A stretch of DNA of 64,000 nucleotides, taken from contig DAOLUH010000003.1 in the NCBI GenBank assembly GCA_035420085.1, positions 80,106 through 144,105 of the forward strand, in the 5' to 3' direction. Each line of letters opens with the position of its first letter. Within the stretch, counting starts at the first letter, position 1. The notes beneath the pieces are model-generated. The model ran no database searches. It was not told the origin of the DNA and saw nothing but the letters and a program-made list of their open reading frames with translations. This DNA comes from Anaerolineae bacterium. GTDB taxonomy: Bacteria > Chloroflexota > Anaerolineae > B4-G1 > SLSP01. This document shows, in pieces, positions 16,983 to 37,700 of the stretch. The position numbers were made by a program, and so were the translations under genes.

Positions 16983-17050
16983 TGGGTCAGAGTAACAGCA
17001 AAGCATTGGCGAAACAGGTAGCGCGATAGAGGTCCGTTTCCCAAGTTTCG

Positions 17051-18319: not shown

Positions 18320-19841
18320 TTCCTACACCTGGCGCTCCTTGGAACTACGTGCAGCGGAGTATTATGCCCATATCTGCAAACCGGAGAGCGAGTGGAAAAC
18401 GCTTGGGGATTTAGCGCCTCAATTGGTAGAATTTGAACATTTGGTGAAAGCCGGTGCCTATGATGCGGCGTGCCAAGTCCTGGACAGTATAGATACCACC
18501 CACTTGTTCATATGGGGATATTATGCACTGCTTGTAGGAATGCGAAAAGCCTTGGTAGGAGAGATTCAGTTGTTGGCTTTACAGCTCAATAACTTCGAAG
18601 GGATGGCCAATGCTTTAAGAGTATTGGGAGAGTTGCAATCGGCCATTGCCCACTATGAACAAGGATTAACTCTAGCGCGTCACATCAGGGATCGGTCAAG
18701 AGAGGGAAAATTGCAAGGAAACCTGGGAAGTGCATATTGGGCATTAGGACAATATGAAAAGGGTCTAGCTTCTTATGAAAGTGCTTTAGCGATAGCAAGT
18801 GAAACAGGGGATCGGTGGGAAGAGTGCAAACAACTTAGCCGTTTGGGACGCACCTCCTATCAATTAGGATATTTTGCACAAGCCGTCATGTATCATGAAA
18901 AAGCTCTCACGATTGCTCGTGAAATCAGGAATCGTCAATGGGAAGGGTACATTTCAGGAGCACTAGGCAATATCCGGCGTGCTTTAGGGCAATTCGAAGC
19001 AGCACGTACCCTCTATGAAACAGCTTTGGCAATTGCGTACAAGACGGGGGAGCGCCGTGAAGAAGGTGTGCGTCACTGGAGTTTAGGGCGTCTCTACCAT
19101 GATCTGGGGCATCCTGAAAAAGCGTTGACCTTTTATGAGATAGCACTTCGGTTCAGTCGTGATACAGCAGCTCGAGTGGAAGAACAGAAAGTTCTCGGAA
19201 GTATAGGCGACATCTATCTTGATCTTGAAGATTATACACAAGCTCTAGATTACTACCAAAAGGCCCTGACGATCAATCAGGAAATTGGTTATCGAAGAGG
19301 TCAAGGATATCGTCTGTTGGGGCTACTAAAGGCTAAACTGGCAATTGGAGATTTCGCAGAAGTCCAACATTTGGAATCAGTGGCTATGTCATTCAAGATT
19401 CTTGAAGTTGATTATCACATCCAATTAATTCTGGGAATTGCTTATCTGTATCAGAATACCATGAAAGCATCCGAGTATATCGCCGGTGCTGTCACACAGA
19501 GTCAGGGATTGTTAGCAAAGAGTCGAGGGTTGTATGCTCCTCAATATGCTCTGGGCACTGCTCTGGTTGGTCAAGCTGCGTGCGATCCTCGCTGGCCTGA
19601 CTCCAACCAACACACTGTCTTGCTTGCTTCCGCTTTGGCAGAATACCGTCGTGCTCTTGATATCACCTCGGCTCCCGGTGTTGTCCGCGATGCGCTTCAC
19701 GATCTGAAACTGATCCGTGCTGCCGGCATCGACGGCCTGGAACCGGCATTTGCCTTGTTAGAACAAGCCATAGCTGATTGGCAATCCTTACCGGGTGACG
19801 CTTTACCGTCGCCCACGAGCTTACAGGAGGATACCGTATGA
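18306..19841 (+). CDS. TPR-repeat protein, paralog 2 of 5
   Basis: Track ORF 18210..19841, trimmed to ATG at 18306 (MSSSNSYTWRSLELRAAEYYAH...); 14-nt overlap with paralog 1. C-module 'ITSAPGVVRDALHDLKLIRAAGIDGLEPAFALLEQAI'. Confidence 0.85.
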   Translation: MSSSNSYTWRSLELRAAEYYAHICKPESEWKTLGDLAPQLVEFEHLVKAGAYDAACQVLDSIDTTHLFIWGYYALLVGMRKALVGEIQLLALQLNNFEGMANALRVLGELQSAIAHYEQGLTLARHIRDRSREGKLQGNLGSAYWALGQYEKGLASYESALAIASETGDRWEECKQLSRLGRTSYQLGYFAQAVMYHEKALTIAREIRNRQWEGYISGALGNIRRALGQFEAARTLYETALAIAYKTGERREEGVRHWSLGRLYHDLGHPEKALTFYEIALRFSRDTAARVEEQKVLGSIGDIYLDLEDYTQALDYYQKALTINQEIGYRRGQGYRLLGLLKAKLAIGDFAEVQHLESVAMSFKILEVDYHIQLILGIAYLYQNTMKASEYIAGAVTQSQGLLAKSRGLYAPQYALGTALVGQAACDPRWPDSNQHTVLLASALAEYRRALDITSAPGVVRDALHDLKLIRAAGIDGLEPAFALLEQAIADWQSLPGDALPSPTSLQEDTV

Positions 19842-21637: not shown

Positions 21638-23130
21638 AAGATAAGCAGGCTTTCAACAGTGAGCCGATGTCGTACACACGCCAGGCTCTAGAATTGCGTG
21701 CGGCGGATTACTATGCCAGTATACGTAAGCCGGAGTATGAGTGGAAATCTATCGAGGATTTGATCCCGCAACTTACACAGTTCAGACATCAGGTGTGTGC
21801 GTTAGATTACGAAGGCGCTAGTCAAACTCTCCGGGCAATCGATTATGATTACCTCTACCTTTGGGGGTATTACGCACGACTGATCGACTTACACAGCCAA
21901 TTGTTGGGGAACCTGCAAACTCCTCGTCTGGTGATGGATAACCTCGTTGGTCTGGGACGTGTTTGTCGCGCTACCGGCAAATTTACTCAGGCAGTTACAT
22001 ACTACGAAAAGGCTTTGGATGTTGGCGGCACAATCGATGACTCATATAGAAAAAGTGTGCTGTTTGGCCACTTGGGTAGCGTGTATCGTGCTTTGGGCAA
22101 GATCAAACAGGCTATTGAGTTCTACGAGCAGGCTTTAACACTGGCCCTGGAGGTCGCGGATCGCCGTTTACAATGTGATCAACTTGGACACCTGGGGATG
22201 TGTTACCGAAGTCTCGGCGCAATGCACCAAGGTATCCAGTATCATCAGCAGGCTCTCGCCATTGCGCGGGAGATCGGCAATCGTGCTCTGGAAGGTGCCA
22301 ACCTGAGTAGCCTTGGCAGCGCTATGCGCGCGATCGGTAAAATCGAGGAATCTTTGATTTACTACCGACAGGCTCTAGATATTGCGCGACAAACCCGCGA
22401 CCGGCGTGTTGAGGGCTTTGCTTTATCCAGTATGGGCGGTGCGTATCGAGCCTTGGGCGACATCAACTATGCTATTGAATGTTACAGGCAGGCGCTTGAA
22501 ATAGCGCGTGAAACCGGTTATCGCCAAGGAGAGGCGATAGACCTGGGCGACATAGCCAGTGTTTACTACACGTTAGGCAAATATGACCAGGCGCTAGAGT
22601 TGTATGAGCAAGCTCTCAAGATCAGTAGTGAGATAGGGGACTCCCGGCAAGTTGGATATCATCTCGTTGGCCTTGGCAAAACCTGGTTGGCAATGGGACC
22701 CTATTCCAGAGCCATCGACTGTTTTAGGCAATCACTCGACGTGGGCTTACCGGATTCAGCTTACCGTGCGGCATTGGGATTGGCTGTGACCTATCTGACA
22801 CTTGGAAAACCTGAAGCTGCAGCCGCGTTTGGGGACGCGATAGTCCGTAGTAGAGTGCTATTGGATAAAACCCAGGATAATTACCGGGCGTTATATGCAC
22901 TTGCTACTGCCAAGGTAGGCGTTGCCATCTGCGACCCACTTTGGAACAATGTCCGTAGACGCGCCGATCTTCTAGCCCCTGCATTGGATAAGTATCGGCG
23001 GGCTTTGGAAATCACCGCTATGCCTGGTGTTGTACGGGATGCCTTGCGCGACCTCGAACTCATCCGCGCTGTTGGCGTTGAGGGCCTGGAACCAGTGTTT
23101 GCACTCCTGGAAGGGGGATTGAATGGATAG
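21634..23130 (+). CDS. TPR-repeat protein, paralog 3 of 5
   Basis: 498 aa. 'YTRQALELRAADYYASIRKPEYEWKSIEDLIPQLTQFRHQ' ... 'ITAMPGVVRDALRDLELIRAVGVEGLEPVFALLEGGL'. Start overlaps the NTPase stop. Confidence 0.85.
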   Translation: MKDKQAFNSEPMSYTRQALELRAADYYASIRKPEYEWKSIEDLIPQLTQFRHQVCALDYEGASQTLRAIDYDYLYLWGYYARLIDLHSQLLGNLQTPRLVMDNLVGLGRVCRATGKFTQAVTYYEKALDVGGTIDDSYRKSVLFGHLGSVYRALGKIKQAIEFYEQALTLALEVADRRLQCDQLGHLGMCYRSLGAMHQGIQYHQQALAIAREIGNRALEGANLSSLGSAMRAIGKIEESLIYYRQALDIARQTRDRRVEGFALSSMGGAYRALGDINYAIECYRQALEIARETGYRQGEAIDLGDIASVYYTLGKYDQALELYEQALKISSEIGDSRQVGYHLVGLGKTWLAMGPYSRAIDCFRQSLDVGLPDSAYRAALGLAVTYLTLGKPEAAAAFGDAIVRSRVLLDKTQDNYRALYALATAKVGVAICDPLWNNVRRRADLLAPALDKYRRALEITAMPGVVRDALRDLELIRAVGVEGLEPVFALLEGGLNG

Positions 23131-24844
23131 TCCCGATCCTTACAATCGCCGTAACCTGGAACTGCGAGTAGCGGAATACTACGCCAGTATTCGCAAGCCA
23201 GAGAGCGAGTGGAAGACGATTGAGGATTTGACCGCACTATTATCGGAAGTCGAACATCGTTTCTGTGGCGGTGACTGTGATGGCATGGCCAGGTTGCTGG
23301 ATTTGATTGATGTTGATTACTTATTCTTATGGGGATATCATCATCACTTGATTAGACTGCGCGAACAACTGATCAATTGTCACATCGAACCACGTTTGCA
23401 GGTTCAGAACTTAGGTCGATTGGGACGCATAGCGCACAGCATAGGGCGATTCAATCGAGCAATCGAATATCATCAACAGGCCTTGCGTATTATCGAGGAT
23501 GCCGGTTTGGATGACAATGTGGAAAAATGCAAACATCTGGGTTATCTCGGTACCAATTATCACTTCCAGGGCCAGGCTGGAAAAGCGATTGATTACTATC
23601 AGAGGGCGTTAGCCCTTGCCCGCAGTGTACACGACCGTGGCTTTGAAAGTATCTGGTTGGGCTATTTGGGATACGCTTATCGTATTATCGGAGAGTTGGA
23701 TCAGTCGGTCACTTGCTTGGAACGTGCCTTGCAGATCGCGCGGGTGATAGGTGACCGTCGGGAGGAGCAGCGTCATCTTGGCAACCTGGGTAGCACTTAC
23801 TATGATTTAGGAGAAACGGAAAAGGCCCTAACCTACTATCGTGACGCCGTTGCCATTGCACAAGAACTTGGCTATCGGCGGTATGTTGGAATCTGGCAAG
23901 GGGCTTTGGGTGAAGTGTATCGGGACCTGAGGTATTTAGATCAAGCGATTCGGGTGTGTCAAGAGTCTCTGGCTATAGCTCGAGAGGTTGATGACAGATG
24001 GAGTGAAACCCTCTGGTTACGATCATTAGGTAATGCTTACTATAATGTGGGGCAGTTCGAAGAAGCTATCCGTGTTGCCAACCAGGGGCTTGCGATCGCG
24101 CAGCAGATTGGCGATCGGGTATCAGAAGGCGGACATCTGGGTATCTTGTGCAGAACATATCTGTCGCTTGGATTCAATGATCAAGCATTTGAGTATGGTC
24201 AAAATGCGTTAACCGTGACTCGAAGCACGCATGAACCTCGGAATATGTGTGTTCGACTTTGCGATTTCGGGGCTGTCTGTTTCAGCCTTGAGCAACTCGA
24301 ACTTGCGCTTCAGCATTATACGCAAGCTTTAATCCTCGCCCGTGAGGGAGGTGAACCCTATAAGGTGAGTTATTGCTTGTTGGGAATGGCGAGAGTTTTG
24401 CTTGGTGAAGGGCGCTACAGCGAAGCCGAACCGTACAGTCGCGAAGCTTGCACATTGGATGTGCCAGCAACTAAACATCAAGCAGCTCTAGGTTTGGCCT
24501 TTTCACATCTCTATCAATGCAGTATATCGGCTGTGGAAAGTTTCACGGATGCAATTGCAGAATGTCAGACTATCCTGAATAAAACGCCAACGTTATATAA
24601 GACCCGTTACGTCTTGGCGACTGCGATGGTGGGGCAAGCCGTATGTCACTCAAGATGGGGAAATATTGGCGAAAAGAGAACGTTGTTGGTTCCCGCTCTC
24701 GTCGAATATCGCCGCGCGCTGGACATCACATCTGCCCCTGGCGTCGTGCGTGACGCCCTCCGCGACCTGGAACTCATACGTGCTGCCGGTGTCGAGGGTT
24801 TGGAGCCGGCATTTGAACTGCTGGAAGGTGCGTTGAATGAGTAG
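23123..24844 (+). CDS. TPR-repeat protein, paralog 4 of 5
   Basis: 573 aa. 'YNRRNLELRVAEYYASIRKPESEWKTIEDL' ... 'ITSAPGVVRDALRDLELIRAAGVEGLEPAFELLEGAL'. 8-nt overlap with paralog 3. Confidence 0.85.
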   Translation: MDSPDPYNRRNLELRVAEYYASIRKPESEWKTIEDLTALLSEVEHRFCGGDCDGMARLLDLIDVDYLFLWGYHHHLIRLREQLINCHIEPRLQVQNLGRLGRIAHSIGRFNRAIEYHQQALRIIEDAGLDDNVEKCKHLGYLGTNYHFQGQAGKAIDYYQRALALARSVHDRGFESIWLGYLGYAYRIIGELDQSVTCLERALQIARVIGDRREEQRHLGNLGSTYYDLGETEKALTYYRDAVAIAQELGYRRYVGIWQGALGEVYRDLRYLDQAIRVCQESLAIAREVDDRWSETLWLRSLGNAYYNVGQFEEAIRVANQGLAIAQQIGDRVSEGGHLGILCRTYLSLGFNDQAFEYGQNALTVTRSTHEPRNMCVRLCDFGAVCFSLEQLELALQHYTQALILAREGGEPYKVSYCLLGMARVLLGEGRYSEAEPYSREACTLDVPATKHQAALGLAFSHLYQCSISAVESFTDAIAECQTILNKTPTLYKTRYVLATAMVGQAVCHSRWGNIGEKRTLLVPALVEYRRALDITSAPGVVRDALRDLELIRAAGVEGLEPAFELLEGALNE

Positions 24845-26468
24845 CACTTATCCCTACACTCGCCGCGCTATGGAGTTACGAGCAGCGGAATACTATGCCA
24901 GCATCCGCAAACCGGAACAAGAATGGCGATCTATTGAAGATTTGACTCCCCAATTGACAGAGTTTGAGCATCGCGTTCAGGGTGGAGACCATGACGCCGC
25001 GTGTATACTTCTCAATTGGATTGACTATGAGTATCTGTTTCGCTGGGGAAATTACAACTGGCTGCTGCAATTGCGGAAGCAGTTGAATGGTCGCTTACAC
25101 GATGTACTTCTTCAGGCGATGAATCAGGATGGATTAGGTTTCGTGCTCCTGGCACTGGGGCAAATCCGGGAAGCCATTGCGTTGCACGAGGACAGCTTGG
25201 CCCTTGCCGAACAAATAGGGGATCCGCAATTGGTCTGCCAGGTCTTGAATCATTTAGGAACTGCCTATCGCGATCTGGGGGAAGCAACCAGGGCGATTCG
25301 ATTGTATGAGGAAGCACTAAAGATAGCGCAAGACCTGTACTTTCGAGATCGTGAAGGGACGATTCTTGGAAACTTGGGGAACGCTTATCACAACTTGGGG
25401 GATTTTGAGCAGGCAATTGGGTTCTATGGGCAAAGTCTGTCCATTTACCGTGAGTTAGGTAATCGCCGCAGGGAAGGGGCAGAATTAAGTAACTTGGCCA
25501 ATACATACCGGGCAATGAAACAGTGTCATACAGCTTTGCGACATTACGAAACAGCGTTGGCTATCGCTCAGGAGATCAATGACGCGCTGTCTGAAAGCGA
25601 AACGTTAGGGGGCTTGGGCGTCGTATACCGTGAGTTAGGACAGTTTGAGTCGGCGCGCGATCTCTCTGAAAAGGCCCTGGCGATTGCCCGAGCTATCTCG
25701 GCTCGACGTTACGAAGGATTGAACCTGGGCCGCTTGGGTATCATCAATCAGTGCCTTGGGCAATATGCAACAGCACAAGCATACTATGCACAGGCACATT
25801 CCATCGCGTCGGAGATCGAGGATGTGCGCTATGTACGTGCTTGGTCGCATTATCTGGGAACTCTGTACCGTGCCTTGGGAGATTTTGACAAAGCAGTTGT
25901 CCATCACCGGCAAGCATTACCTGAAGGATACGAGGGTGAAGACAGGTCAGGGAAGGGTATCCATCTGCTGGGTCTAGGCAAAGCTCTGCTTGCACAGGGC
26001 CAGTTCGCGGAAGCCCGGTTGTGCTTTGAAGAAGCTTACACGCACAACACAGCCATCCGACATCAGGTACGGTTGATGCAAGGTGTGACTTGTCTGCATA
26101 TTCGGCATACGGCGTGCGCTGAATATTTTCGCACCGCTGTTGACCACTGTCGCGAAATGCTGCAAGCGGGGGACCTATATGAGACTCACTATACCCTGGC
26201 CATTTCTCTGGTTGGTCAGGCTGTCTGTGATCCACATTGGGATGACGCCACTCAACGCGCTGATCTCCTTGCCCTTGCGTTGACCGAGTATCGGCGCGCC
26301 TTGGGAATCACTGCTGCCCCTGGCGTTGTACGCGATGCTTTGCGCGACCTTGAACTCATCCGTGCTGCCGGCGTTGAGGGTGTGGAACCGGCGTTCGCGT
26401 TGTTGGAGCAGGCGCTCAAACGTGACACGCCTGCTACCAAGGGTGGTTCTGATCTCAGCACAGTGTAA
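24837..26468 (+). CDS. TPR-repeat protein, paralog 5 of 5
   Basis: 543 aa. 'YTRRAMELRAAEYYASIRKPEQEWRSIEDL' ... 'ITAAPGVVRDALRDLELIRAAGVEGVEPAFALLEQAL'. 8-nt overlap with paralog 4. Confidence 0.85.
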   Translation: MSSTYPYTRRAMELRAAEYYASIRKPEQEWRSIEDLTPQLTEFEHRVQGGDHDAACILLNWIDYEYLFRWGNYNWLLQLRKQLNGRLHDVLLQAMNQDGLGFVLLALGQIREAIALHEDSLALAEQIGDPQLVCQVLNHLGTAYRDLGEATRAIRLYEEALKIAQDLYFRDREGTILGNLGNAYHNLGDFEQAIGFYGQSLSIYRELGNRRREGAELSNLANTYRAMKQCHTALRHYETALAIAQEINDALSESETLGGLGVVYRELGQFESARDLSEKALAIARAISARRYEGLNLGRLGIINQCLGQYATAQAYYAQAHSIASEIEDVRYVRAWSHYLGTLYRALGDFDKAVVHHRQALPEGYEGEDRSGKGIHLLGLGKALLAQGQFAEARLCFEEAYTHNTAIRHQVRLMQGVTCLHIRHTACAEYFRTAVDHCREMLQAGDLYETHYTLAISLVGQAVCDPHWDDATQRADLLALALTEYRRALGITAAPGVVRDALRDLELIRAAGVEGVEPAFALLEQALKRDTPATKGGSDLSTV

Positions 26469-26473
26469 TTGTC

Positions 26474-26514
26474 GTCGCCAGTGTTGCTGACTGATGAACA
26501 GCAACACTGGCGAC
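26474..26514. terminator. perfect 16-bp inverted repeat between convergent genes (possible bidirectional terminator; no T-tract)
   Basis: GTCGCCAGTGTTGCTG (26474-26489), 9-nt loop, CAGCAACACTGGCGAC (26499-26514). Confidence 0.35.
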
Positions 26515-26522
26515 AACTCTGC

Positions 26523-29500
26523 TTATCCACCCCCCACAATCATCTCCAACTCCGTATCCGCCGGCGGCACAATCCCTGAAATGTCCACGAACTGTACCGG
26601 GAAGATTTCCATTTCACTTTCCTGGCTCAACGTCTTGCGCGTGCGGCGCACATAGCCCACCCCCGTAGGCATATTGAGCACGCTCAGCGTCCACTTGGAA
26701 TAGTCGTCGAGGCTTGTCTTTCCCGGCAAGCGCCCGGCCTTCGACACCGCGATTTCAGCATCTTTCACCGTACTCACCTTCTGGATAATCGCAATACTAC
26801 TGGAAGTCACCACGCCGGATGGCAACGGCTCCCAATGCTGCGCCGACGTCCACAGGTACAGGCCCAGCTTGCGTCCCCGGTCGGTGATGTTGTTCCACAG
26901 GCCCGCATCCTCGCCAATGGCCTGGGCGATCTCCGTTTGGGACGAGGCATCCGAGCGCATCACCACGTGGGCTTCTTCGACGAAAAGCAAGTGCTGCGGA
27001 ATGGGCCGGCCTTGACGTAAGTAATGCTCATAGCGTTCGTCCGCGTGCTGGTAGATGCCGGACACCATCAAGCCAATGATAAACTGCTTCAACGGCCCGT
27101 CATCGCCGAACTTCCCCGTAATCACCGTCGCTTTGTCCGGGGCCGTCCACTCGGTGACCGTCGTGCCGCCTGGCTGCCCGAAGGCGCGCCAGTACACCCC
27201 CTTCGGCAAGAACTCTTCCAGCTTGTCGATGATGCGCTTGACCACGCCGGCGGTGATTGTGTCGCTGCGGTCGGCGCTGAGTGCGGCGAAGCGGGAAACC
27301 AGGGCCTTGTGCAAGTCCTCCATACACAGATTCGCCGAACGGTCCAGGTACACCCTGCCGTCCTCCTCGATGACGCCCGCCGCGCGGTAAGCGTCCAGCA
27401 CTGCGCCCTTGAGCTGGTGGAAGCCGGTTGCCCCGGCGGGGTACGCCAGCAGCCAATGTTTGGCGAACGCCGCCGCCCACTTCGCCGGGTGCAAGTACGG
27501 GCTAGGGATGCGCAAGGGGTTGAATTGCAGAAGGGGCAAGGCAATGCCCGTAGCACCCGTTGGACTGTCAAAGGTCTCGACAGCACTGCCTTGCCCGTAC
27601 AGGGAATAATATTGGAGGTCCTTTGATGGAATCAGCAAGCCCAACTTACGCCATTCCCCCGTGGGATCGAAGACCGTCACCCCGATGCGCGGCGTTCCAC
27701 CTGCCGCGCCGGTCCGCACCGGCCCGGTGATGGGGGCAGAGATCGGGATGCCGTGCTCATCTTGCCGCAATGTGTTGACCACCTGCGAGACAAACCACAG
27801 CGCGGAGTTGGACTTGCCGGAGCCGGAATCCCCGACGATGACGGCGTGCATCAGTTCGTCGGCGCGGAAGCGATGGACGTTGTTGGGATCAGGCTGCAAG
27901 TTGACGTCCAACACCGTGCCCAACGCGATTTCCCCTTGGGTGCGGCGATGCGACAGGTCTTCCGGCCAGGCGTCCAGCGAGGCCGAAATCGTGCCGTCCG
28001 AGATGCGAATCGGGTGGACGAGCGCCGATAACTCGTTGGCCGTCAGGGTTTGCGCGTGGCGCAGCGTGTCGAACGGCCCGGCGTCTTCCGCACGCTCGTC
28101 GAAGTCCAGGGTAATGGCCCGTTGCCACAAGGTCTCGTCCCCCGCGCGCGCCGCGACAGGCACGACGACGTTCTCCTCGCGCATCGCCGCAATGGACGCC
28201 GCAGCCAACCGTTCCAGCCGAGATTCGTCAGGAGCCAGCAGCGTCACCTGCGTCAGGAACAGCCCAGTATCCAGCCCTGCGCTCAAGCGGCGTACCTGCT
28301 GGTCAAGCAACTGCGCCACCAGGTCACGCTGTGTGTCCACGATCTGCCGCCCGAAGGCCAGGCCCGCCACCAGCGAACCGCCGGATGGCCCCATCACGCC
28401 GCGTGTCGTCACCTGGGTACGGCCCGCGTTGGCGACCGTTGCCCCGACCTGTTCGGCGGCCTGGGCTTGCACATACTCGCGCCCTTCGCCGATCATCGCC
28501 TCTTGCCGCGCTTCGGCCCCGTCGATCTGCTCTTGTGAGTCACGGTAACCATCAAAGGTCTCGCTGCGGAAGCCGTTGACCACGCGGTTGGTCTCGCGTT
28601 GCAGCGCGCGGTCGGCGACGATCACATCTTGCTGCGAGAGATGCCCGCTACGCTGCCCGGTCTCGGCATAGCTGCCGCTAAAGGTACGGGCGAAGTGCTC
28701 GACGCCTTGATAGCCATCGCGGGTGGCCTGCTGCCAGGCAGTGTCTTGATCCACGGCACTCTCCCAGGCGCGCTGCGCTTCGCGGTCGGTGTGACTGGCA
28801 TCCTGGTAGGCTTCGCTGTAGCCATAAGCCACTTGACTGCTTCGTACCCCGCCCCCACTGCGCCATTCCGCCGTCTGCACCGTCTCATTGCCCTGCCAGG
28901 TCTGACCCAGCGCCTCCTGCTGGTTGCCGCTGCGTTCGTAGGCATTGTCCGACTGCTCGAAGCCTGCTGTGACCGTGCTTTGCTGCGTGTCGCGGGTGGT
29001 GTCCAGGTTACCCTCAGCCTGCGCGATTTCGTGGTCGCGGGATTCGTACATATTGCCACGCTCTCCGGCCTCCATTGTTTCACCCCCGCCGATGCCGAAG
29101 ATGCGCGGGGCCAGGTTGCCTTCCACGCCTTGATCAGCGTAGGTCTGCATCTGCGCTCCGTCACCCTGCACGTTACTTTCGGTGCTGCGGTCGAAGCCCT
29201 CGCTGCTGTACACGCTGCTGGCTCCGGTTTCGGACTGCTGGTAGCCGCCCTCGCTGTGTTCGTTGCCCGCCCCGCTGAACGACCGCTCGGTCTGTTCGTT
29301 GTAGCCGCCTTCCCAGGCACGGCTGCTGCCCCCGCTGTAGCGTTCCCCGACGCTGAAGTTTTCCACGGATGAACGGCTACCTGCCCCGGAGCGCACGCCG
29401 GAAACCCGCTCATTGATGCTCTCGGCGCTGTGCAGATTGCCGGTCTCATCGGTGTGCTGCTGGCGGTTGCCCTGCTGCGTGGCATCGCGCGCACCCTGGG

Positions 29501-30539
29501 TTTGCACCACACCGGCTTCGCTGCCGCTATACGAGCGGGACAAGGAATAACGGTCGGCATAGTCGCGTTCCAGGCTGACCTGCGCTTCTTCGTGCTCGTT
29601 CACCTGTTCACTCACGTGCTGCTTCTCGTAGTAGCCGGTGTTCTCCTGGCCTTGATGCGCCTCGTGGCTCGCGGTCTCACGGCGGTAGGCGCTGACGCTG
29701 TCGGACTGCCCGGCGGCCAGGCGATGGGCGTTCTGCTCGGTGCGCAAGCTTTGGTCGGCCCGCGTCACCTGGGTGGCACGATGGGTCTGTTCGCTGAACA
29801 CCGCCACCGGATTGAGGAACAGGGGCAGCACCGCACTCACATTGGCCGACTCGCTCTGCTTGACCTTGGAGGCGAAGTAGCTCAGGGCTTGGGCAGTGTC
29901 GGTCAGCATCCGCCGGATGTCCAGCGCGTGCAAGGGGTGTGCCAGGGTCAGGACGGCGAACGGCTCCCCGGCCAGCGCGGCGGCGATGACCTCGAGCTGC
30001 TCTTGCGCATCGGTGGTCACCAGTTGGTTGATGCCGTGCCCTGACCCCATCCCGGGTGCAAGGCGCGGCACCATCTGGCCGATGAGGGACGCGGTGTAGT
30101 GACAATCCCACAGATGCCGGTACAGCGCCGCGGCTTCGTCGCCGGATAGCAGCGTAAAGCGCGACTGCCGGAAGCGCCCTTGCAACGCCGCGACCAGACG
30201 TGCCGAGTTGAGCGCAGCCGCTTGCACGGCCTTTTCCTGAGTCTCTGCCGTTGCCAGCCCGCCGTAGACCTGAACGAGGCCCAATTCGGGCACATTGGCC
30301 AGGCCAAAGGCGGCGGCGGTGTTGCGCGCACCTTGTGGATCGTACAGGCTGCTCACCACGTCGTCGGTGAGTTCCAGGTGCGTCCGCGCGTGGCGATAGG
30401 GCTTGCGCAGGATGCGCAGCGCGTGCGGCGACCACGCCCGCCAGCCGTCGGGCAAGGCCCAGGCATAGGCGTGCAAGGATGCGCCGTCGGGGGTCAGGGT
30501 CATTGAGAAAGTGTTGGTGTTGGTGTTTGTGTTGTTCAT
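26523..30539 (-). CDS. 1338-aa HerA/FtsK-superfamily (DUF87-like) P-loop ATPase with a unique N-domain and a ~440-aa low-complexity disordered linker
   Basis: AAGGAGA RBS before ATG at 30539. C-terminal half: 'GEIALGTVLDVNL...ELMHAVIVGDSGSGKSNSALWF' (HAS-barrel-like segment + Walker A) and 'QHLLFVEEAHVVM' (HerA-type Walker B hhhhEEAH). Residues ~260-700 are a Q/S/E/G/Y/R-rich region with no recognisable fold. Confidence 0.7.
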   Translation of the reverse strand: MNNTNTNTNTFSMTLTPDGASLHAYAWALPDGWRAWSPHALRILRKPYRHARTHLELTDDVVSSLYDPQGARNTAAAFGLANVPELGLVQVYGGLATAETQEKAVQAAALNSARLVAALQGRFRQSRFTLLSGDEAAALYRHLWDCHYTASLIGQMVPRLAPGMGSGHGINQLVTTDAQEQLEVIAAALAGEPFAVLTLAHPLHALDIRRMLTDTAQALSYFASKVKQSESANVSAVLPLFLNPVAVFSEQTHRATQVTRADQSLRTEQNAHRLAAGQSDSVSAYRRETASHEAHQGQENTGYYEKQHVSEQVNEHEEAQVSLERDYADRYSLSRSYSGSEAGVVQTQGARDATQQGNRQQHTDETGNLHSAESINERVSGVRSGAGSRSSVENFSVGERYSGGSSRAWEGGYNEQTERSFSGAGNEHSEGGYQQSETGASSVYSSEGFDRSTESNVQGDGAQMQTYADQGVEGNLAPRIFGIGGGETMEAGERGNMYESRDHEIAQAEGNLDTTRDTQQSTVTAGFEQSDNAYERSGNQQEALGQTWQGNETVQTAEWRSGGGVRSSQVAYGYSEAYQDASHTDREAQRAWESAVDQDTAWQQATRDGYQGVEHFARTFSGSYAETGQRSGHLSQQDVIVADRALQRETNRVVNGFRSETFDGYRDSQEQIDGAEARQEAMIGEGREYVQAQAAEQVGATVANAGRTQVTTRGVMGPSGGSLVAGLAFGRQIVDTQRDLVAQLLDQQVRRLSAGLDTGLFLTQVTLLAPDESRLERLAAASIAAMREENVVVPVAARAGDETLWQRAITLDFDERAEDAGPFDTLRHAQTLTANELSALVHPIRISDGTISASLDAWPEDLSHRRTQGEIALGTVLDVNLQPDPNNVHRFRADELMHAVIVGDSGSGKSNSALWFVSQVVNTLRQDEHGIPISAPITGPVRTGAAGGTPRIGVTVFDPTGEWRKLGLLIPSKDLQYYSLYGQGSAVETFDSPTGATGIALPLLQFNPLRIPSPYLHPAKWAAAFAKHWLLAYPAGATGFHQLKGAVLDAYRAAGVIEEDGRVYLDRSANLCMEDLHKALVSRFAALSADRSDTITAGVVKRIIDKLEEFLPKGVYWRAFGQPGGTTVTEWTAPDKATVITGKFGDDGPLKQFIIGLMVSGIYQHADERYEHYLRQGRPIPQHLLFVEEAHVVMRSDASSQTEIAQAIGEDAGLWNNITDRGRKLGLYLWTSAQHWEPLPSGVVTSSSIAIIQKVSTVKDAEIAVSKAGRLPGKTSLDDYSKWTLSVLNMPTGVGYVRRTRKTLSQESEMEIFPVQFVDISGIVPPADTELEMIVGGG

Positions 30540-30556
30540 AGGGTCTCCTTTGATTT

Positions 30557-30614
30557 GGTAGACGGTAGACAGTAGACGGGTTTTCTTTCCCTGTCTACCG
30601 TATTCCGTCTACTG
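30557..30614. repeat. GTAGACNG word hairpin between the 4-TM gene and the HerA-like gene
   Basis: GGTAGACGGTAGACAGTAGACGGG ... CCCTGTCTACCGTATTCCGTCTACTG. A related GTAGATGGTAGACGGCAGACAGTAGAC lies at 34544-34570, upstream of the kinase gene. Confidence 0.6.
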
Positions 30615-31007
30615 ACGCTTAATCTGTTGAATAACATCCCGGCTTGCCATCCGCCCACCGAAGAACGGCGTACTGCGGTCCCAGAACAGGAAGCGCAAGA
30701 TGTAGGCATAGAAGCCGATGGCCGACATCACGGCGAAGCCCAGCAGCCACACTGAAATGCCGTAGAGCGTCGTCGCGCCTGGCTCCGGCGTGCCGCTGAC
30801 CAGCAATGCAGCGATGCGGTAGGCAAAGAGCAAGCCGGCGTTGCCCGCGAGGAAGAAGTAGATGTAGTTCGTGGTCGCCGCGCGGTCATCGGGCTTGAAG
30901 TAGGCCAGCGCCAGCGCCGCGCCCCACATTGGGGCCAAGACCCAGCGCAGTGCGCCAGGGGCCAGGACGAGGGCCAGGGTGTGTAAGGCCAAGATCAAAT
31001 ATGGCAT
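30609..31007 (-). CDS. small 4-TM membrane protein
   Basis: Track ORF 30609..31160, trimmed to ATG at 31007 (AGGAGG RBS): MPYLILALHTLALVLAPGALRWVLAPMWGAALALAYF... Four hydrophobic helices. No homology recognised. Confidence 0.55.
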   Translation of the reverse strand: MPYLILALHTLALVLAPGALRWVLAPMWGAALALAYFKPDDRAATTNYIYFFLAGNAGLLFAYRIAALLVSGTPEPGATTLYGISVWLLGFAVMSAIGFYAYILRFLFWDRSTPFFGGRMASRDVIQQIKRQ

Positions 31008-31107
31008 TGTGTGTTTCCTCCTATCTATAAATATGTACGTTTCGACAGAGTTTTCAGGATAGTGCATCTTTTCAACCTGTTCAACCTGTCGATCCTGTCC
31101 AAGAAAA

Positions 31108-31265
31108 CGAAAAAGGGGAGGACGCGGGATTGATCCCGTGTCCTCCCCTTTTATTCTCATCTCGGTGTTACGCGGTCAGAGCGCCGCAGGCTTGGAGGTT
31201 CCTGCGGTTTGGAGCCGAAGCCCCGGACTTTTGCGCCTGGAGGGTGATGCTGTATCCAGGTTTAT
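31108..31265 (-). ncRNA. candidate ~155-nt structured 5' leader or sRNA (copy 2), homologous to 16692-16845
   Basis: Minus-strand RNA hairpins: CCTGGA-tacagcatcaccc-TCCAGG, GGGGC-ttcg-GCTCC and CCGCAGG-aacctccaag-CCTGCGG, then CGCTCTGAC. Terminator GGGGAGGACrCGGGAT-caa-TCCCGCGTCCTCCCC followed by TTTTT (plus 31109-31148). Lies ~100 nt upstream of the 4-TM gene. Confidence 0.45.
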
Positions 31266-31269: not shown

Positions 31270-31299
31270 ATTATACCATATTCATACCTTGAATTTCAA
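31270..31299 (-). promoter_or_regulatory. sigma70-type promoter of leader copy 2
   Basis: Minus strand reads CCCCCCTTGAAA (-35, plus coordinates 31294-31299), an 18-nt spacer, then TGgTATAAT (extended -10; TATAAT = 31270-31275). Confidence 0.45.
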
Positions 31300-31372
31300 G
31301 GGGGGAATGGCTCAATTGCTCAATGTCTGATAATATACAGACTCTTGTGAGATACTCGTAGCTATTTACCCT

Positions 31373-34300
31373 TTACTTTCGCTCTTTGACGATTTGCTGT
31401 AACCATTTCCGGCGCTGTTCGAACGCTGATTTGAGATGAGAGGGCACATACTGTGCAATACTTTGCTCTACTAATGTCATAAACCCAGGGCTACGCATCA
31501 ATGGAAACTGTGCCACCGCACGTCGCATTGCCGGTAACGAGTCAGTAGCCTGAAATGCTTGGAACGCTTGTTTTGTCTCTGTTAAGGCCTCTTGCTTCTG
31601 GGATTCTATCTTTTGGAGTTCTACCATAAATTGTTCTGCCTGTTGTCGATTAGGGCTACCGATTTGCTTCCAGAGAAGCGCTGCCTTTTGCGCCAGAGGA
31701 ATTGCACGGGTTATGTCATCTTGTTGTACGTAAAGTCGTGCCATGTTGAAGGAAAAGTGTGCTACACCGTCATTATCTCCGGCTTCACGCAAGATTACCA
31801 ATGCCTGCTCATAATACTCAACAGCGCGTCGTGTGTTACCCAAATTTGCATACGCATTTCCCAGATTACCCAAAGCATTTCCCTCGTCACGCCGCTCACC
31901 AATCTTCCGGGCAACCTCATAATATTTTTCGTAAAATGCGATGGCGTTTTGTGTGTTTCCCAAGGCAGCATAGGCCACCCCCAGACTTCCCAAGGCGTTC
32001 ATTTCTTTGTACGGATCGCTGGCCTTGCGAGCAATCTCCAACTGTTGACTGTAGTAGCTAATGGCGCTGTGTGGATCATCTGAGTCAACGTGGGTAATCC
32101 CAGGATCTGCATCTTGGGCGGCTTGCGTCCTGATCTGTGCCAAAATTTCACGCACAAGGAGCGTGTGCCCATGGTCCATTTCTGCCGTAAGGATGGCCTC
32201 ATTTCGTTCTCCGGTCCAAATGCGGCGGATAGGAGCAATGATATTCCACCCGTTCTGCTCGATGTGTGGGAATGCTTCTTCCACTGCCGCACGGGCTTGG
32301 CGGTCGCCTCGTGCTGCTGCAGCTATAGCCTGAATAAGCGGTGTAAAGCTCTCGATAAGTTCCACATCTGCTCTGATCTGAGTATCAAGTTCTACAACGA
32401 GTTGTTGCGCAATCTGCGCACTTGGACTGCCGATTTGTGTCCAAATCTGAGCAGCTTCCTGCGCCAAAGGTAATGCTTGTGTCATTTTCCCTTGTTCTGT
32501 GTATAAGCGGGCAATATTGAATGACTGTCTTGCCACACCGTCAATATCGCCAATCTCACGGGCAATGGTAAGTGCTTGACTGTAGAGTTCATTAGCACGG
32601 CGAGTCTCTCCCAATCTAGCGTAGGCTGCTCCCAGGTTGCCCACGGCTCTTCCTTCTCCACGTCGGTTGCCGATCTCACGCCAGATTGTTAAAGCCTGTT
32701 CAGTAAAGCTGATGTCACGGTGCGCATCACCCAGAAGCCCATACGCTACTCCCAAATTGGTTAGGTCATTCCCTTCTCCATACCGATCGCCGATCTCGCG
32801 ACGGATGACTAGTGCTTGCTCATAATACTTAATCGCTTGACGTGTATCCCCTAAATCTTTGTAGGCAATACCTAAGTTACCTAAAGTAATTACTTCTTCA
32901 ATCCGATGACCGAGTTCACGTTGAATCGTCAATGCCTGTTCGTAATACTGGATAGCACGGTTGGCATCTCCTAGATTTTTATAAGCCACTCCCAGATTCC
33001 CCAGAACATCGCTCTCCCCTATCTTATGACCAAGTTTACGGTCAATGATCAATGCCTGCTCGTAATATTGGATCGCCTTTCTCAGATCACCCAGGTTCTT
33101 GTGCGCAACTCCCAGGTTGTTCAGTACGGTACTTTCACCAAGTGCATCATTCATGTCACGGGTTATAACCAAGGCTTGTTCATAATATCCGATGGCGCGA
33201 TGAGTGTCACCCAATTGCTGATAAGCTCCCCCCAAACCTAAAAGCGCCTGTGCTGAATACAAATTTTCTGACTGCAAAATTGCAATTGCGCGTTCAAAAT
33301 AGCTTATAGCCACTTCCACTTTACCAATATCCAAGTAAGCTATTCCAATGACACTATACGATGAGGCAATTTGTAACAGTTCTTCGCGGATCAACACAGT
33401 CGCATCGGCAGGCGGCGGCGCGGGGCGTTCGGCTATAGTGGCATACGCAGACGCCAGAGCAAATTCAAGGCTCTCCCAATCCGCGTAACGGTCGCCTGGA
33501 TTGAGCGCAAGGCAACGGCGTAGAATATAACGCACCGGCGCGGGGATGCTCTCAGGCAGCGGGCGCAAGTTGCCGGTGCGATGAGCATATTCCAACGCTT
33601 CCCAACTCTCAATAGGCGCTGCGGTATAGCCGGTGAACATCTCGTAGAGGATGCAGCCAAGCGCGTACGCATCCGTATAGACGCCCACGGGCGCGCCCTG
33701 CCATTGTTCCGGGGACATATACAGCTTCGTACCAGCGCCCTGTGTAAATTGTGCCTGTCCCACATCTACTTTGTCTATCTTGTTAGAATGTGTTATGGAT
33801 GCATTTGTTTCAACTATTTTGGCTAACCCAAAATCAGTCACGCGCAGCCGGTTGATCTGCGTATCCGGCAAATGATCCGCGCCTACCAGCACATTTTCCG
33901 GCTTGAGATCGCGGTGGACGAAGCCGGGGATGCGCGCGACAGCGTGCTGCATCCCGCGCGTGATTTGTAACGCGAAGAGCAGCGCCGTCTCCGGCGGCAG
34001 TGGACGCCCCCCGGCTTGCCCTGAGCCATATCGAAGGGGTAACCATGAACGCAGCGAGGCGTCTTCACGCTCTTGCCCTTTGGCAATCAGTTCCAGCGCC
34101 AGGTAGACTTCCAGGCCGGTGGTGTCACGGATAACCTCATAGCATCGCACGATGTGCGGATGCGCGCCCAGGTTCATCCAGGTGGTACCTTCGCGCAGGA
34201 ACCGGTCGCGGGTGGCCCGGTCGGGCAAGTATTCCGGCTTGAAGGTTTTGAGCGCCACGGGCAAGTCTTGCTGTTGATCCCGGCAGATATAGACGATGCC

Positions 34301-34525
34301 CATGCCGCCCATCAGCGGGTCGCCGACGACTTCGTAACGTCCGAGGATTGTGTCGCCGGAGCGGTAGACTTTCTGCACCGATTGGGATGCGATTCCCGGG
34401 GCCGGAGACGCAGGTGGGGGCGCAGGCGGCGCGACGGGAGGGGCAGTGCGCGGCGCAGCGGTCTGTGATGGCTTTGCCGGTTCTGGTTCGCCTTTTTGGC
34501 CTAACAGCTTTTTGAAAAAACTCAT
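31373..34525 (-). CDS. Ser/Thr protein kinase fused to a long TPR array
   Basis: 1050 aa. Pro-rich N-terminus. Hanks kinase motifs 'GGMGIVYICRD', 'VALKTFKPEY', 'HRDLKPENVLV', 'DFGLAK', 'SPEQ'. Then ~15 TPR units of the form YEQAL.I.REIGDR..EG..L.NLG.AY. A sharp G+C drop near 33400 coincides with the kinase/TPR boundary. Confidence 0.85.
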   Translation of the reverse strand: MSFFKKLLGQKGEPEPAKPSQTAAPRTAPPVAPPAPPPASPAPGIASQSVQKVYRSGDTILGRYEVVGDPLMGGMGIVYICRDQQQDLPVALKTFKPEYLPDRATRDRFLREGTTWMNLGAHPHIVRCYEVIRDTTGLEVYLALELIAKGQEREDASLRSWLPLRYGSGQAGGRPLPPETALLFALQITRGMQHAVARIPGFVHRDLKPENVLVGADHLPDTQINRLRVTDFGLAKIVETNASITHSNKIDKVDVGQAQFTQGAGTKLYMSPEQWQGAPVGVYTDAYALGCILYEMFTGYTAAPIESWEALEYAHRTGNLRPLPESIPAPVRYILRRCLALNPGDRYADWESLEFALASAYATIAERPAPPPADATVLIREELLQIASSYSVIGIAYLDIGKVEVAISYFERAIAILQSENLYSAQALLGLGGAYQQLGDTHRAIGYYEQALVITRDMNDALGESTVLNNLGVAHKNLGDLRKAIQYYEQALIIDRKLGHKIGESDVLGNLGVAYKNLGDANRAIQYYEQALTIQRELGHRIEEVITLGNLGIAYKDLGDTRQAIKYYEQALVIRREIGDRYGEGNDLTNLGVAYGLLGDAHRDISFTEQALTIWREIGNRRGEGRAVGNLGAAYARLGETRRANELYSQALTIAREIGDIDGVARQSFNIARLYTEQGKMTQALPLAQEAAQIWTQIGSPSAQIAQQLVVELDTQIRADVELIESFTPLIQAIAAAARGDRQARAAVEEAFPHIEQNGWNIIAPIRRIWTGERNEAILTAEMDHGHTLLVREILAQIRTQAAQDADPGITHVDSDDPHSAISYYSQQLEIARKASDPYKEMNALGSLGVAYAALGNTQNAIAFYEKYYEVARKIGERRDEGNALGNLGNAYANLGNTRRAVEYYEQALVILREAGDNDGVAHFSFNMARLYVQQDDITRAIPLAQKAALLWKQIGSPNRQQAEQFMVELQKIESQKQEALTETKQAFQAFQATDSLPAMRRAVAQFPLMRSPGFMTLVEQSIAQYVPSHLKSAFEQRRKWLQQIVKERK

Positions 34526-34578
34526 TGTATCCTCCTGGTAAACGTAGATGGTAGACGGCAGACAGTAGACAAGTACTT

Positions 34579-34794
34579 CGTCAACCTGTCAGGGTTGTTC
34601 ACACGCCGGGTGCACCAACAGCCACGTATCGCTGGCCTTGAGAATATCACCTTCGGTCAGGCGGAGTGTTTCAGTGGTGATGCGCTCTTCGGTGTTGAGA
34701 CGGTATGTGCCGTGCGGCGATTGGACGCCAATTAATGTCCAGCCCTCCGCATTCGGTTTGAAGCGCGCCTGCGGCGTCGCCTGACGCTTACCCC
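34579..34794 (-). pseudogene. start-less ORF remnant encoding an FHA-like C-terminal segment; inferred displaced 3' end of the nucleotidyltransferase gene at 39117-40001
   Basis: Hand translation (minus strand): FKNRGKRQATPQARFKPNAEGWTLIGVQSPHGTYRLNTEERITTETLRLTEGDILKASDTWLLVHPACEQP*. No ATG or GTG start; bounded upstream by TAG at 34795-34797. 'GxxLxxxxSxxGTxxN......L..GD.i' resembles the distal half of an FHA domain. Confidence 0.45.
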
Positions 34795-37700
34795 TATTTT
34801 TAAAACTACAAATGGGCTAGAATAAGTTGAGGTGGGGGCGTTGTGTATCTGAGCTACCTAATCTATCCGATTTTGGAGGGTGAGCTCAAGAATCACGCTA
34901 ATCTCTGCTCCAAGATATCCGCAATCCAGAATAATCGAATTCCCTCGACTCCCGGATAGATTTTTTCCAGGCGTTGAGTATATTCAACAATACCCTCTAG
35001 CTCAAGTTTAAATGTGCTACCACCCTCACTTGGCCGGACTTGGTCATAGGCCTCAAGTAAAGCTTCAACGGCTATACGTAACTTATCCCGCTTCTGTTGT
35101 TCTTCTTCTGACAATGCATTGAATTTGTTAAGCAATGCTGCAGCCGTATCAAAGAACATCTGGAGAGCCGTACTCAATGCTTTTGAAACATCGCCACTGA
35201 TATATGCCTGCAATCTCTCCCTGCCAGGTTCAGTTGGCTCCGGCATTGCTTGAAATTCACTGATTTGGGAAGTGAGTTGGCGCAGTGTGTTAACAGACTC
35301 AGAAAGCTGATTGGCTAAAGTAATATCTGCCGAATCCCATACGTCGAGTTGCAATTCTTCCCTAATGGTATCGGGCAATTCTTGAGAAAAGTAGGCCCAT
35401 GGTTTTTCCTGGATAGTGTCCCCCTGTAGAATAGTGATTGTGTACAGAGGCCAAACCAACTCGTTCAACATTTTCCCACCAACAACAGGGATAACGACGA
35501 TGTACTCACACGTATCCTGAATCAGATAATAGACCAAGCTCTCGAAATCTATAATACCCAGAGTCTCACGCAACGCTGCGGGAAACTGTTGAAGTATTTG
35601 CGTGTAGAGTTCTGTTGGATCCCGCAGGTCAAATCTGACCCATAGGGGAGGCCGACCTTGCCAACGGTGCTCAATATCAAGATAAGTGGCAGTACAAGTT
35701 GGCGATTGTACTGTTGTCAAGGCTTGCTGGATTTGTGAAATCAGTTGGTTTTGTGCCATACGCACCCAGTGAGCTACCTGTATTAGGGGATTTGCAGCCC
35801 CTTTCCAGGGTTCATAGGCATAGAAATACCACAGCATCCAAGCCGTTGTAAGTTCCTCATGTTCGCGTTGTTCCAGTGTGGTTATCAGACTTACATCAAG
35901 TAATTGGCCAAACAATGCGCGGAATTGTTGTTGATAGGTTGTGATTCTGGTCCTAGCATCGAAAAGATTGAGCACCGGCAGATGCGGATTAGTCTTTACC
36001 CCTTTGTCCTGTAGTTCTTTGAGGACAGTAGCTTTTCGTGGATCGTCAGGATGTAGTTTCCCGATATTGAAATCTGTCACCCATATATCTGGAGCTTGAC
36101 CGACAAAGTTGCGCATTGAGCCAAAGTAATCCCGCTGCGCCTCGAGATATGCCTTATACTTCTGAAGCGCAATGGCAGTCGGAACATAAGCCTTATTCTT
36201 CTGAGATGTCGTATTTGGGCCAGAACCTTGCTGGGAAAGAGTTTGTAAAAAGGAAACCGTTGCACTCTCACTGGCGAAACCCCACGGGTCAACTGATGAT
36301 TTAGGTAAATCCAATGTGCTTCCCAACATATCCCAACAGCGTTGCCATACCTGCAGGTCGATATACTTTTGACCAATGCTGAGTGCTTTGTCTCGTTGGT
36401 AGAATTTAACTAGCCCTCGATTAAGTTGCGTTATGCAATTGACAATCAATTGTCGGATTTCTATGATGGTGTCAAGATAGGCTTTCCAACTCTCAGGTCG
36501 ATAAAAGTAGCGCGCCAAGCCACTGGCGATGCTATTCAACCAAGGTGACCATTTTGGCGGCAGGTAGTTCACAGATACACCGTCTTTGCGGGTACTGTCA
36601 CCCTGGGGGAGTTCGATACCTGCGGGTTTGAAACCATATCCCTGCGCAGCATAATGTTCAAAATTGGGAAATAATCTTCGGATCAGGTCAATCTTCGTCA
36701 TTGTCTCATTGTGTAGTCGATCCGTACTGTCCCCAGATGCTTCTCCTATGGGAATAAAGTGAGTCTTGAGTGTTGTGCCTACCTTTTCCAAAGCAAGAAT
36801 ATTGGATTCATGAGCTAGGCGGCGGTGAATGGTTGGCGTATGCGTCTCCAGCCACATTTGGTGACGCTGTGGGTTATACAAATGAAGTGCCAACGACAAA
36901 TCTGCAAGCATTGTGAGGGATAATTCTTCAGAGACAACATCCAGTTCTGCAGCAGAGAGCCATTCGCCAATTGGATGTCGCGATACTAACCGGCCAGCCC
37001 AATACAAAACCTCCGCAACATCTCGCCATATCTCAGGCGTGGAAGGCATTGTTGGGCCTTGATCTAGTTTCTCAAACCAAGCAATCGCCCGCTGGAAAAC
37101 GGAGTCTTTTGACGTCTGGCTTTGACGGATTGCCCTGATTTGAGTTTGTTGCTCTGAAGAGATAAGTTCTCCTAGTTTTGTCCACCATTCACCTACTTCC
37201 GGACCTTCACCCGGTGGCGAGAAATTGAAATCTACTACCGCCCACCACGCCGGGCCAAGAACTTTGTAAGCGGCTTCCGTCGCGGCACAGTTGGTCACTA
37301 CGTAATCATTCACACCAGCCCATAATAAACATCGCAAGACACCGGCGATACATGACCAGGTGTGAGGTTTGAGCGTCATTACAAAGTTGAGAAGCCGCTC
37401 GGAGTCTGCGGGACGTTCCACCAAAGCGTGGAGGATGAATGTTTCCAGGTCTCCTTCAAACATCAACGGCAGTACCTGGGTTGCGATTTCTATCCACGGA
37501 TTTAGGTCAGGCTTGACCAATAATTCGCTAAGAAGACTTGAACGAATTGGATGCAGTCCTTCAAGATAGAATCCATCTGCACTGCGTCGCAGTAGATACT
37601 CCTTCTCAAATTGTGTTAATGTGCGATCCGGACTAGGTAATTTCAAATTGTCAATCAAATCGCGTGTACTCAAGCGTGCACCATAGGCGGAGGCTACAGA

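Follow-up and report, generated by a model that had tools for sequence, protein, structure and literature searches.

The stretch of DNA considered here (the window) comprises 64,000 nucleotides of a contig from an Anaerolineae bacterium of the phylum Chloroflexota (assembly GCA_035420085.1, contig DAOLUH010000003.1, forward-strand positions 80,106 to 144,105), and this work concerns two neighbouring minus-strand genes in it, one encoding a small polytopic membrane protein and the other a large protein that ends in an ATPase domain (Table 1). Both open reading frames (ORFs), of 132 and 1338 amino acids, are present exactly as a preliminary description had given them, and so is their pairing, as the membrane-protein gene lies directly 5′ of the ATPase gene in every locus for which upstream sequence is available. 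Analysis of the neighbourhoods, however, does not bear out the idea of a two-gene module: the pair heads a conserved Tad/Flp pilus operon of about 20 genes, from the rest of which it is merely separated in this window by an island of cargo genes. The same architecture of the large protein occurs in more than 25 independent loci, and unitigs from two independent activated-sludge runs span the ATPase gene at even depth and without indels; the gene, including its long middle region, is therefore not the assembly artefact that it could at first have been suspected to be. Contigs of relatives that extend over the two genes are present in an RNA-seq run of sludge; as carry-over of DNA is possible, this is weak evidence of expression. 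The membrane protein has three to four hydrophobic spans and starts at the ATG at 31007, with an AGGAGG ribosome-binding site, inside a longer reading frame that extends to 31160; it has no match in Pfam, NCBIfam or PADLOC.

Table 1. Features of the gene pair, its control elements and the pilus cluster (positions in the window; aa, amino acids)
Feature	Position	Strand	Basis or remark
Promoter-like TTGAAA-18 nt-TATAAT, 11/12 match, extended TG	31270-31299	-	5′ edge of conserved module
Structured 5′ leader, several hairpins, the last a GC-rich terminator-like one with U-run (about 31100-31152)	31092-31262	-	fold z = -5.9
Small polytopic membrane protein, 132 aa, 3-4 transmembrane segments	30609-31007	-	conserved motifs KPDDR, TPDPEG, RFLFWER
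Stable intergenic hairpin, no U-run after it	30540-30608	-	dG -32 kcal/mol, z = -6.4
ATPase gene, 1338 aa	26523-30539	-	ORF list
N-domain, aa 1-262, alpha/beta fold specific to the family	29754-30539	-	AlphaFold2 model, exhaustive search
Middle low-complexity region, aa 263-715, G/S/E/Q/A/R-rich	28395-29753	-	1 Lys, 1 Pro, 20 Tyr
C-terminal HerA-clade P-loop ATPase, aa 716-1338	26523-28394	-	Walker A/B, conserved Q1234, fold
Low-GC cargo island: five TPR proteins and one EAD7-bDLD1-NB-ARC (STAND) protein	16951-26522	+	GC, Pfam
Second, diverged leader copy	16677-16850 (with promoter to 16900)	-	covariance model, 142 bits, full length
DUF4352 protein	16066-16695	-	conserved accessory gene
Two short ParA-like/helix-turn-helix proteins	15334-16065, 14780-15340	-	conserved accessory genes
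316-aa protein at CpaB/RcpC position	13774-14724	-	conserved accessory gene
CpaE/TadZ-like protein	12259-13626	-	CpaE-like AAA_31 (Pfam)
CpaF/TadA	9102-10496	-	Pfam T2SSE, 6e-40
Prepilin peptidase	8378-9229	-	Pfam Peptidase_A24
TadB	7341-8261	-	Pfam T2SSF
TadC	6436-7344	-	Pfam T2SSF
Flp pilin	5945-6229	-	motif EEGQG/LLEY (G/xxxxEY type)
TadE	5469-5885	-	Pfam TadE, 1.4e-7
Secreted repeat protein, 1466 aa, after pilin and TadE genes	1032-5432	-	

The 1338-residue protein falls into three regions, an N-domain (residues 1-262), a middle region of 453 residues and a C-domain of 623, and no transmembrane segment was found in it. At its C-terminus is a motor of the HerA clade, within the FtsK-HerA superfamily. 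The motifs by which it had first been recognised as a HerA-type ATPase, Walker A GDSGSGKS (27810-27833) and Walker B LLFVEEAH (26967-26990), are present, and G908, K909, E1188, E1189 and Q1234 are invariant or nearly so across 38 aligned relatives, so that the catalytic set is intact. An AlphaFold2 model of the domain (623 residues, 42-sequence alignment, predicted local distance difference test score, pLDDT, 85.8) matched the structures of DndH-C, HerA, TdpA, Sir2-HerA and DUF4297-HerA in Foldseek (E 7.5e-14 to 1e-8), the best being DndH-C (E 7.5e-14, template-modelling score on the target 0.71), with the HerA of Sulfolobus solfataricus at E 3.4e-13; the profile of the family, in turn, found HerA chains in the PDB at E 3e-17 and no chains of VirB4 or FtsK. 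Fold and profile therefore agree in placing the motor with HerA. With the Pfam model DUF87 (PF01935) the protein scores 13.2 bits, short of the gathering score of 23.2; the model is matched by 11 of the 38 relatives at E<=0.001, an E-value criterion rather than the gathering score. FtsK_SpoIIIE (PF01580) is not matched, and the protein ends directly after its ATPase domain, with no winged-helix DNA-recognition domain (the FtsK gamma domain) at its C-terminus. A putative HAS-barrel-like segment had been named among the first hallmarks; in the model, the stretch in front of Walker A is a mixed alpha/beta structure that contains no more than a beta-hairpin.

The N-domain, of which the preliminary description could recognise nothing, has indeed no significant relative in the PDB or BFVD by sequence, profile or fold (AlphaFold2 model, pLDDT 77.5), and in an exhaustive search it turned up solely as the N-terminal part of proteins that have this architecture. 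Its weak fold matches are to generic alpha/beta sandwiches, namely YbjN, several TrwK/VirB4 chains (E 0.4-2) and HUH nuclease domains. G87, G93, G154 and E183 are invariant in the family alignment. The matches to nuclease domains of parvovirus NS1 and CRESS Rep raised the idea of an HUH nuclease or relaxase, which was dropped because the alignment contains no conserved His-x-His and no helix-borne Tyr.

The middle region, described initially as a long, low-complexity disordered linker, has the predicted length and composition (G 12, S 11, E 11, Q 11, A 10 and R 8%, with 14% hydrophobic residues), and it plots on the disordered side of the charge-hydropathy plot. It is, even so, conserved: compared with homologues of 40% identity it is 35-39% identical with 0-7 gapped positions, against 44-47% identity of the N-domain. 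Disordered linkers are usually enriched in Lys and Pro, whereas in the middle regions of the 38 family members Lys mostly makes up 0-2% and Pro mostly 0-0.5% of the residues. This nearly gapless conservation, together with the family-wide depletion of Lys and Pro, indicates a constrained element and not a passive tether, so that of the original label the disorder-like composition stands and the notion of a mere linker does not. Tyr residues are scattered through the region in G/S/Q contexts, and internal repeats do not rise above chance in it (top off-diagonal score 33, against a mean maximum of 31.8 in shuffles). Length and sequence of the region are also conserved within the lineage of the window protein. 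Its length alone, which had been thought rare, is not unprecedented, because FtsK has a similar plan of membrane part, long linker and motor; moreover, all 38 aligned relatives have an S/T/G-rich middle of 175-738 residues.

The family was opened by an exhaustive search with the N-domain alone, as word-indexed searches with the full-length protein or the C-domain gave little. The candidates for the full-length protein may have been swamped by its low-complexity region, but queries with the C-domain only did no better. The exhaustive search returned 57 cluster representatives, nearly all of 1000-1760 residues with the domain at the N-terminus, and the 38 full-length ones among them all combine the N-domain, an S/T/G-rich middle and a C-terminal P-loop. 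All 38 match the NCBIfam family NF033849 (‘ser_rich_anae_1’, serine-rich protein). The window protein aligns with positions 29-1162 of the 1163 in this profile (E 8.7e-95, 318 bits) and does not reach the curated cut-off of 650, whereas six S-rich relatives scored individually gave 752-1404 bits; it represents a divergent sister clade. Members such as RUMAL_RS16760 and HYG84_RS19200 share its architecture from end to end and its context, a small membrane protein upstream and Tad genes downstream, and differ from the Chloroflexota clade in that the latter has a Q/E/R-rich middle not dominated by Ser and extra accessory genes. The architecture is hence catalogued in a family that is yet uncharacterised. 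Within the ATPase domain, some relatives match models of CedD (best E 2.6e-18), CedB, antiphage HerA and VirB4.

Named members of the family come from Anaerolineae, Armatimonadota and Clostridia. A scan with one genome per species yielded 26 loci, all in metagenome-assembled genomes (MAGs) of Chloroflexota/Anaerolineae. The viral collections searched (IMG/VR, GenBank phages and the folds of BFVD) contained no match, and a reading as a prophage gene or packaging ATPase was dropped on that account.

Beyond the protein itself, what characterises this family is its neighbourhood. The Tad/Flp core is complete in one locus of the window (5469-13626), with CpaF, TadB, TadC, Flp pilin, prepilin peptidase and TadE all present, and in every locus that is long enough, down to 40% identity, tblastn and clustering of ORFs recover the same order of genes: membrane protein, ATPase, DUF4352 protein, ParA-like proteins, 316-residue protein, CpaE, CpaF, TadB and TadC. 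The gene of a 52%-identical homologue (P0017), for instance, is followed directly by those for DUF4352, the ParA-like proteins, a single-stranded DNA-binding protein (SSB), the protein at the CpaB position, CpaE, CpaF, TadB, TadC, pilin and TadE. In this window only, two to three ORFs with fragments of the serine-recombinase ‘Recombinase’ domain (10439-12037, minus strand) lie between cpaE and cpaF; as these two genes adjoin each other in all other loci, the fragments are probably the remains of a decayed inserted element. The cluster runs past the left edge of the window, where a CLIPPER-repeat protein and two more TadE/TadG genes are found. The 1466-residue protein has a signal-peptide-like N-terminus, repeats of ~50 residues with DGxDNDT motifs, Cys-containing repeats and a beta-helix-like C-terminus, and is possibly a pilus-associated adhesin.

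The same arrangement recurs on two clostridial plasmids, the only carriers among the 72,556 plasmids of PLSDB: Alkaliphilus pB6464 (436 kb) and pRUMAL01 (421 kb) of Ruminococcus albus 7. On both, the ‘serine-rich protein’ stands between a small polytopic membrane protein and CpaB(RcpC)-CpaE-like-CpaF-TadB-TadC-Flp-prepilin peptidase-TadE, the clostridial protein at the CpaB position matching RcpC at E 1e-5, and genes for SSB, primase and DnaE lie upstream of the cluster. From the Chloroflexota loci and these two plasmids it follows that the association of membrane protein, ATPase and Tad pilus spans phyla. Homology between the small membrane proteins of the two groups was considered and rejected (hhalign probability <1%), and they can be regarded as positional analogues only. 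Two genes upstream of the cluster of pB6464 (our locus L030, 11726-13171) is a hypothetical protein of 481 residues with a nearly full-length match to Replic_Relax that falls below the threshold (E 0.007); it is a possible relaxase-like partner.

In the window, the tie between the pair and the pilus genes is also seen in a control element that both halves of the split operon have kept. The pair is preceded by a promoter-like sequence and a structured leader of ~170 nt with no Rfam family, homology among close loci starting sharply at about 31305-31316, and a second copy of the leader, ~70% identical, stands beyond the cargo, close in front of the gene for the DUF4352 protein. The second copy is found in the window and in two other loci (L006, 13774-13948; L007, 22895-23069), and the two copies differ by compensatory changes in 11 pairs of their stems. 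A leader precedes the membrane-protein gene in L014, L016-L018, L020-L022, L025 and L028 as well, and the covariance model (R1) places it there in all Chloroflexota clades (rough E-values of 4e-9 to 3e-4), with no match on the clostridial plasmids. Since both halves of the operon keep the same element, the ATPase pair is thus tied functionally to the Tad genes; the second promoter and leader appear to restart the genes downstream, and the leader is a candidate attenuator or antitermination element for the operon. For the hairpin that separates the membrane-protein and ATPase genes, a function in processing or stability is possible, as is an influence on the proportion in which their products are made.

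What splits the operon is foreign in composition. The 9.5-kb island has a GC content of 0.46-0.52, against 0.63-0.66 for the cluster; it is absent in the clades of 40-52% identity, in which the DUF4352 gene comes directly after the ATPase gene, and its content varies in L005-L008 and L012. Because relatives carry other cargo at the same spot, the site is an insertion hotspot beside the leader copy. The upstream flank of the membrane-protein gene differs from locus to locus, with no relation in sequence. In the window it holds, on the minus strand (31373-41142), genes for a 1050-residue Ser/Thr kinase-TPR fusion and a 1402-residue nSTAND NTPase with a weakly Cap4-nuclease-like N-terminus, both low in GC and cargo-like, and two genes of the RlaP nucleotidyltransferase family. 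Further on follow an AddA/AddB-like helicase-nuclease pair (41853-48550), a low-GC McrBC system with an EVE-AAA_5 McrB (48559-52353) and an ImuB-like Y-family polymerase with a DnaE2-type polymerase (52752-57262).

It was this setting that first suggested a role in defence, in which the protein would be an anti-phage HerA with a still unrecognised effector. The gene does stand between defence-like islands, Sir2-HerA and DUF4297-HerA are among its best structural matches, and PADLOC gives weak partial matches to HerA and mad8 (E 4e-6 to 3e-4); neither among the window neighbours nor at the 26 loci, however, is there a conserved Sir2, DUF4297, NurA or other nuclease beside it, and the partners that are conserved, across two phyla, are the membrane protein and the Tad genes. 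With the effector missing, and the adjacent STAND and TPR genes variable between loci and of foreign GC content, the defence idea fails, and we regard it as very improbable.

The cluster as a whole, of which sludge Chloroflexota hold many copies, can be present two to four times in a single MAG; one MAG has four copies whose proteins are 87-97% identical, and a second has a pair at 88%. In the MAG with four, the copies come each with a Tad gene set of their own and in differing upstream flanks, and nucleotide homology between them sets in at the leader. This is suggestive of a unit that is mobile or was recently amplified, and its place beside replication genes on the megaplasmids and the variable cargo next to its leader copies fit the same picture. 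No tRNA was found in the window, and thus no integration site of the tRNA type. The two plasmids are classed by MOB-suite (via PLSDB) only as mobilizable or non-mobilizable, that is, no mating-pair apparatus was recognised on them. Pfam detected no VirB6, VirB8, VirD4 or relaxase among the major ORFs of the window cluster and the called genes of L001 and L032, small and hypothetical ORFs having been scanned in part.

Several known systems resemble parts of this arrangement. With the archaeal and bacterial DNA-end-resection helicase HerA, defence HerA, DndH/DptH and TdpA the protein shares the ATPase fold, Walker A and B motifs, the sensor Gln and profile similarity, but it has ~715 additional residues at its N-terminus and, in place of NurA, Sir2, DUF4297 or a Dnd partner, a membrane protein and a pilus operon. 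CedD and CedB are ATPases for DNA import that work with Ups pili (PMC11868833). The Ced/Ups system likewise joins a HerA-clade ATPase with a distinct N-domain to small membrane proteins (CedA) and a pilus of the archaeal, Tad-related type; unlike the window protein, CedB and CedD carry their own transmembrane helices and have no low-complexity region, while in the window no CedA/VirB6-like protein was identified and the genes are clustered with those of the pilus. The window protein has no match to the CedB and CedD models, and two relatives that were checked reach 22-40 bits, in ATPase segments only, against a cut-off of 600. TdtA of Thermus, a HerA-like ATPase for DNA donation encoded on an integrative and conjugative element (PMC5365140), can be likened to the motor of the window as a membrane-associated pump. 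In type IV secretion, too, a small membrane protein, VirB3, is encoded immediately upstream of a large ATPase of the FtsK-HerA superfamily, VirB4, although the pilus of the window is of the Tad type and not a conjugative type IV secretion pilus; models of VirB4/CagE/TrbE do not match the window protein, and match 3 of the 38 relatives weakly within the ATPase domain. Finally, FtsK, SpoIIIE and the TraB of Streptomyces follow a similar plan within the same superfamily, in which a part with four transmembrane helices is joined through a low-complexity linker of great length to a ring translocase at the C-terminus, and TraB illustrates that a single such pump can mediate conjugation. The differences from FtsK are that the membrane part is here a separate polypeptide, the motor is of the HerA clade and has no gamma/winged-helix domain, and the middle is Pro-free, as opposed to an FtsK linker rich in Pro and Gln.

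Tentatively, and at somewhat short of an even chance, we take the pair to form a membrane-docked DNA translocase of the HerA clade that is part of a Tad pilus machine and co-regulated with it, by analogy with Ups/Ced, Thermus TdtA and TraB. The membrane-docked translocase of the preliminary description is in this way supported, but as a part of the Tad operon and not as a stand-alone device. To judge by its fold, the C-terminal domain would form a hexameric pump, the N-domain, given its invariant adjacency, would dock this pump to the small membrane protein and/or the Tad platform, and the conserved Lys/Pro-free middle would space or organise the motor at its membrane site, as the linker of FtsK does. 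The Tad pilus would make contact with another cell or with DNA, and the motor would move DNA across the membrane, either inwards, as CedB and CedD do, or outwards, as TdtA and TraB do. Suggestive of DNA as the substrate is that all characterised structure and family matches are to DNA-handling relatives of HerA, and that SSB and replication genes are found nearby.

A number of observations weigh against this reading. There is no experimental datum for any member of the family, and the substrate could be something other than DNA, because Tad systems have an ATPase of their own and normally serve adhesion. The family is rare on plasmids, as the PLSDB count shows; the Chloroflexota clusters yielded neither a relaxase or coupling protein nor an integrase, tRNA or att site, and SSB lies inside them only in the 52% clade. 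The multi-copy evidence comes from MAGs, which can merge strains, and the resemblance of the N-domain to that of VirB4 is not significant (E 0.4-2).

The link to the pilus also admits of an explanation without DNA, in which the protein would be an accessory motor for assembly or retraction of the pilus, or for export of the repeat proteins or minor pilins, in the manner of VirB4 or EssC. These two exemplify that ATPases of the FtsK-HerA superfamily can take part in building pili or in secreting proteins. The gene itself lies strictly inside the Tad operon, under the same leader; further downstream are several genes for TadE/TadG and for large secreted repeat proteins, and the N-domain has its weak fold matches to TrwK/VirB4. 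CpaF, however, is encoded as well and is enough for known Tad systems, the C-domain most resembles the DNA-handling HerA, DndH and TdpA rather than VirB4 or EssC, and the clusters adjoin SSB and replication genes, for which reasons we think such a motor unlikely, albeit worth serious consideration.

In a further alternative the protein would maintain the mobile element itself, as an FtsK-like pump for segregation or resolution that, with the ParA-like proteins, would partition the DNA of the element or clear it at division in filamentous hosts. Its plan does resemble the four-helix membrane part, long linker and motor of FtsK, but the alpha/beta/gamma signature of FtsK and the C-terminal winged-helix domain are missing; similarly, the cluster includes CpaE besides two ParA-like genes and is carried on megaplasmids, yet the link to pilus genes is tighter than that to replication genes, and the Chloroflexota copies show no replication module. 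We consider this explanation improbable.

Returning to the pilus-coupled DNA translocase, one may go further and propose a new class of DNA-transfer apparatus in lineages of the monoderm type (Chloroflexota, Clostridia and Armatimonadota), in which a Tad pilus would provide the contact and a HerA pump, tethered by a conserved Lys/Pro-free domain of low complexity to a small membrane protein of its own, would move the DNA; this wider proposal is speculative and, as it stands, rather doubtful. The literature searched contains no description of an association of Tad with HerA or of the biology of pRUMAL01, and likewise none of the conserved Lys/Pro-free middle or the duplicated leader; the link of the family to the Tad operon and a small membrane protein is not described there. 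Among the carriers is a strain in culture, Ruminococcus albus 7.

In conclusion, an NCBIfam entry known as a ‘serine-rich protein’ gains by this work a genomic context and a working hypothesis. A middle region that is poor in Lys and Pro and yet conserved in sequence is unusual for a cytoplasmic ATPase, and may show how such motors are organised at the membrane. Conjugation and DNA uptake are poorly understood in Chloroflexota and in many anaerobic Firmicutes, where canonical type IV secretion genes are often missing. A Tad-HerA cluster that spans phyla, on megaplasmids and in multi-copy islands with defence-like cargo, is therefore a testable candidate for a missing route of DNA transfer. If the wider proposal is true, bacteria would have in this cluster an equivalent of the archaeal Ups/Ced system that needs neither relaxase nor VirB4 nor VirD4, and to which the elements and megaplasmids bearing it would owe their spread.

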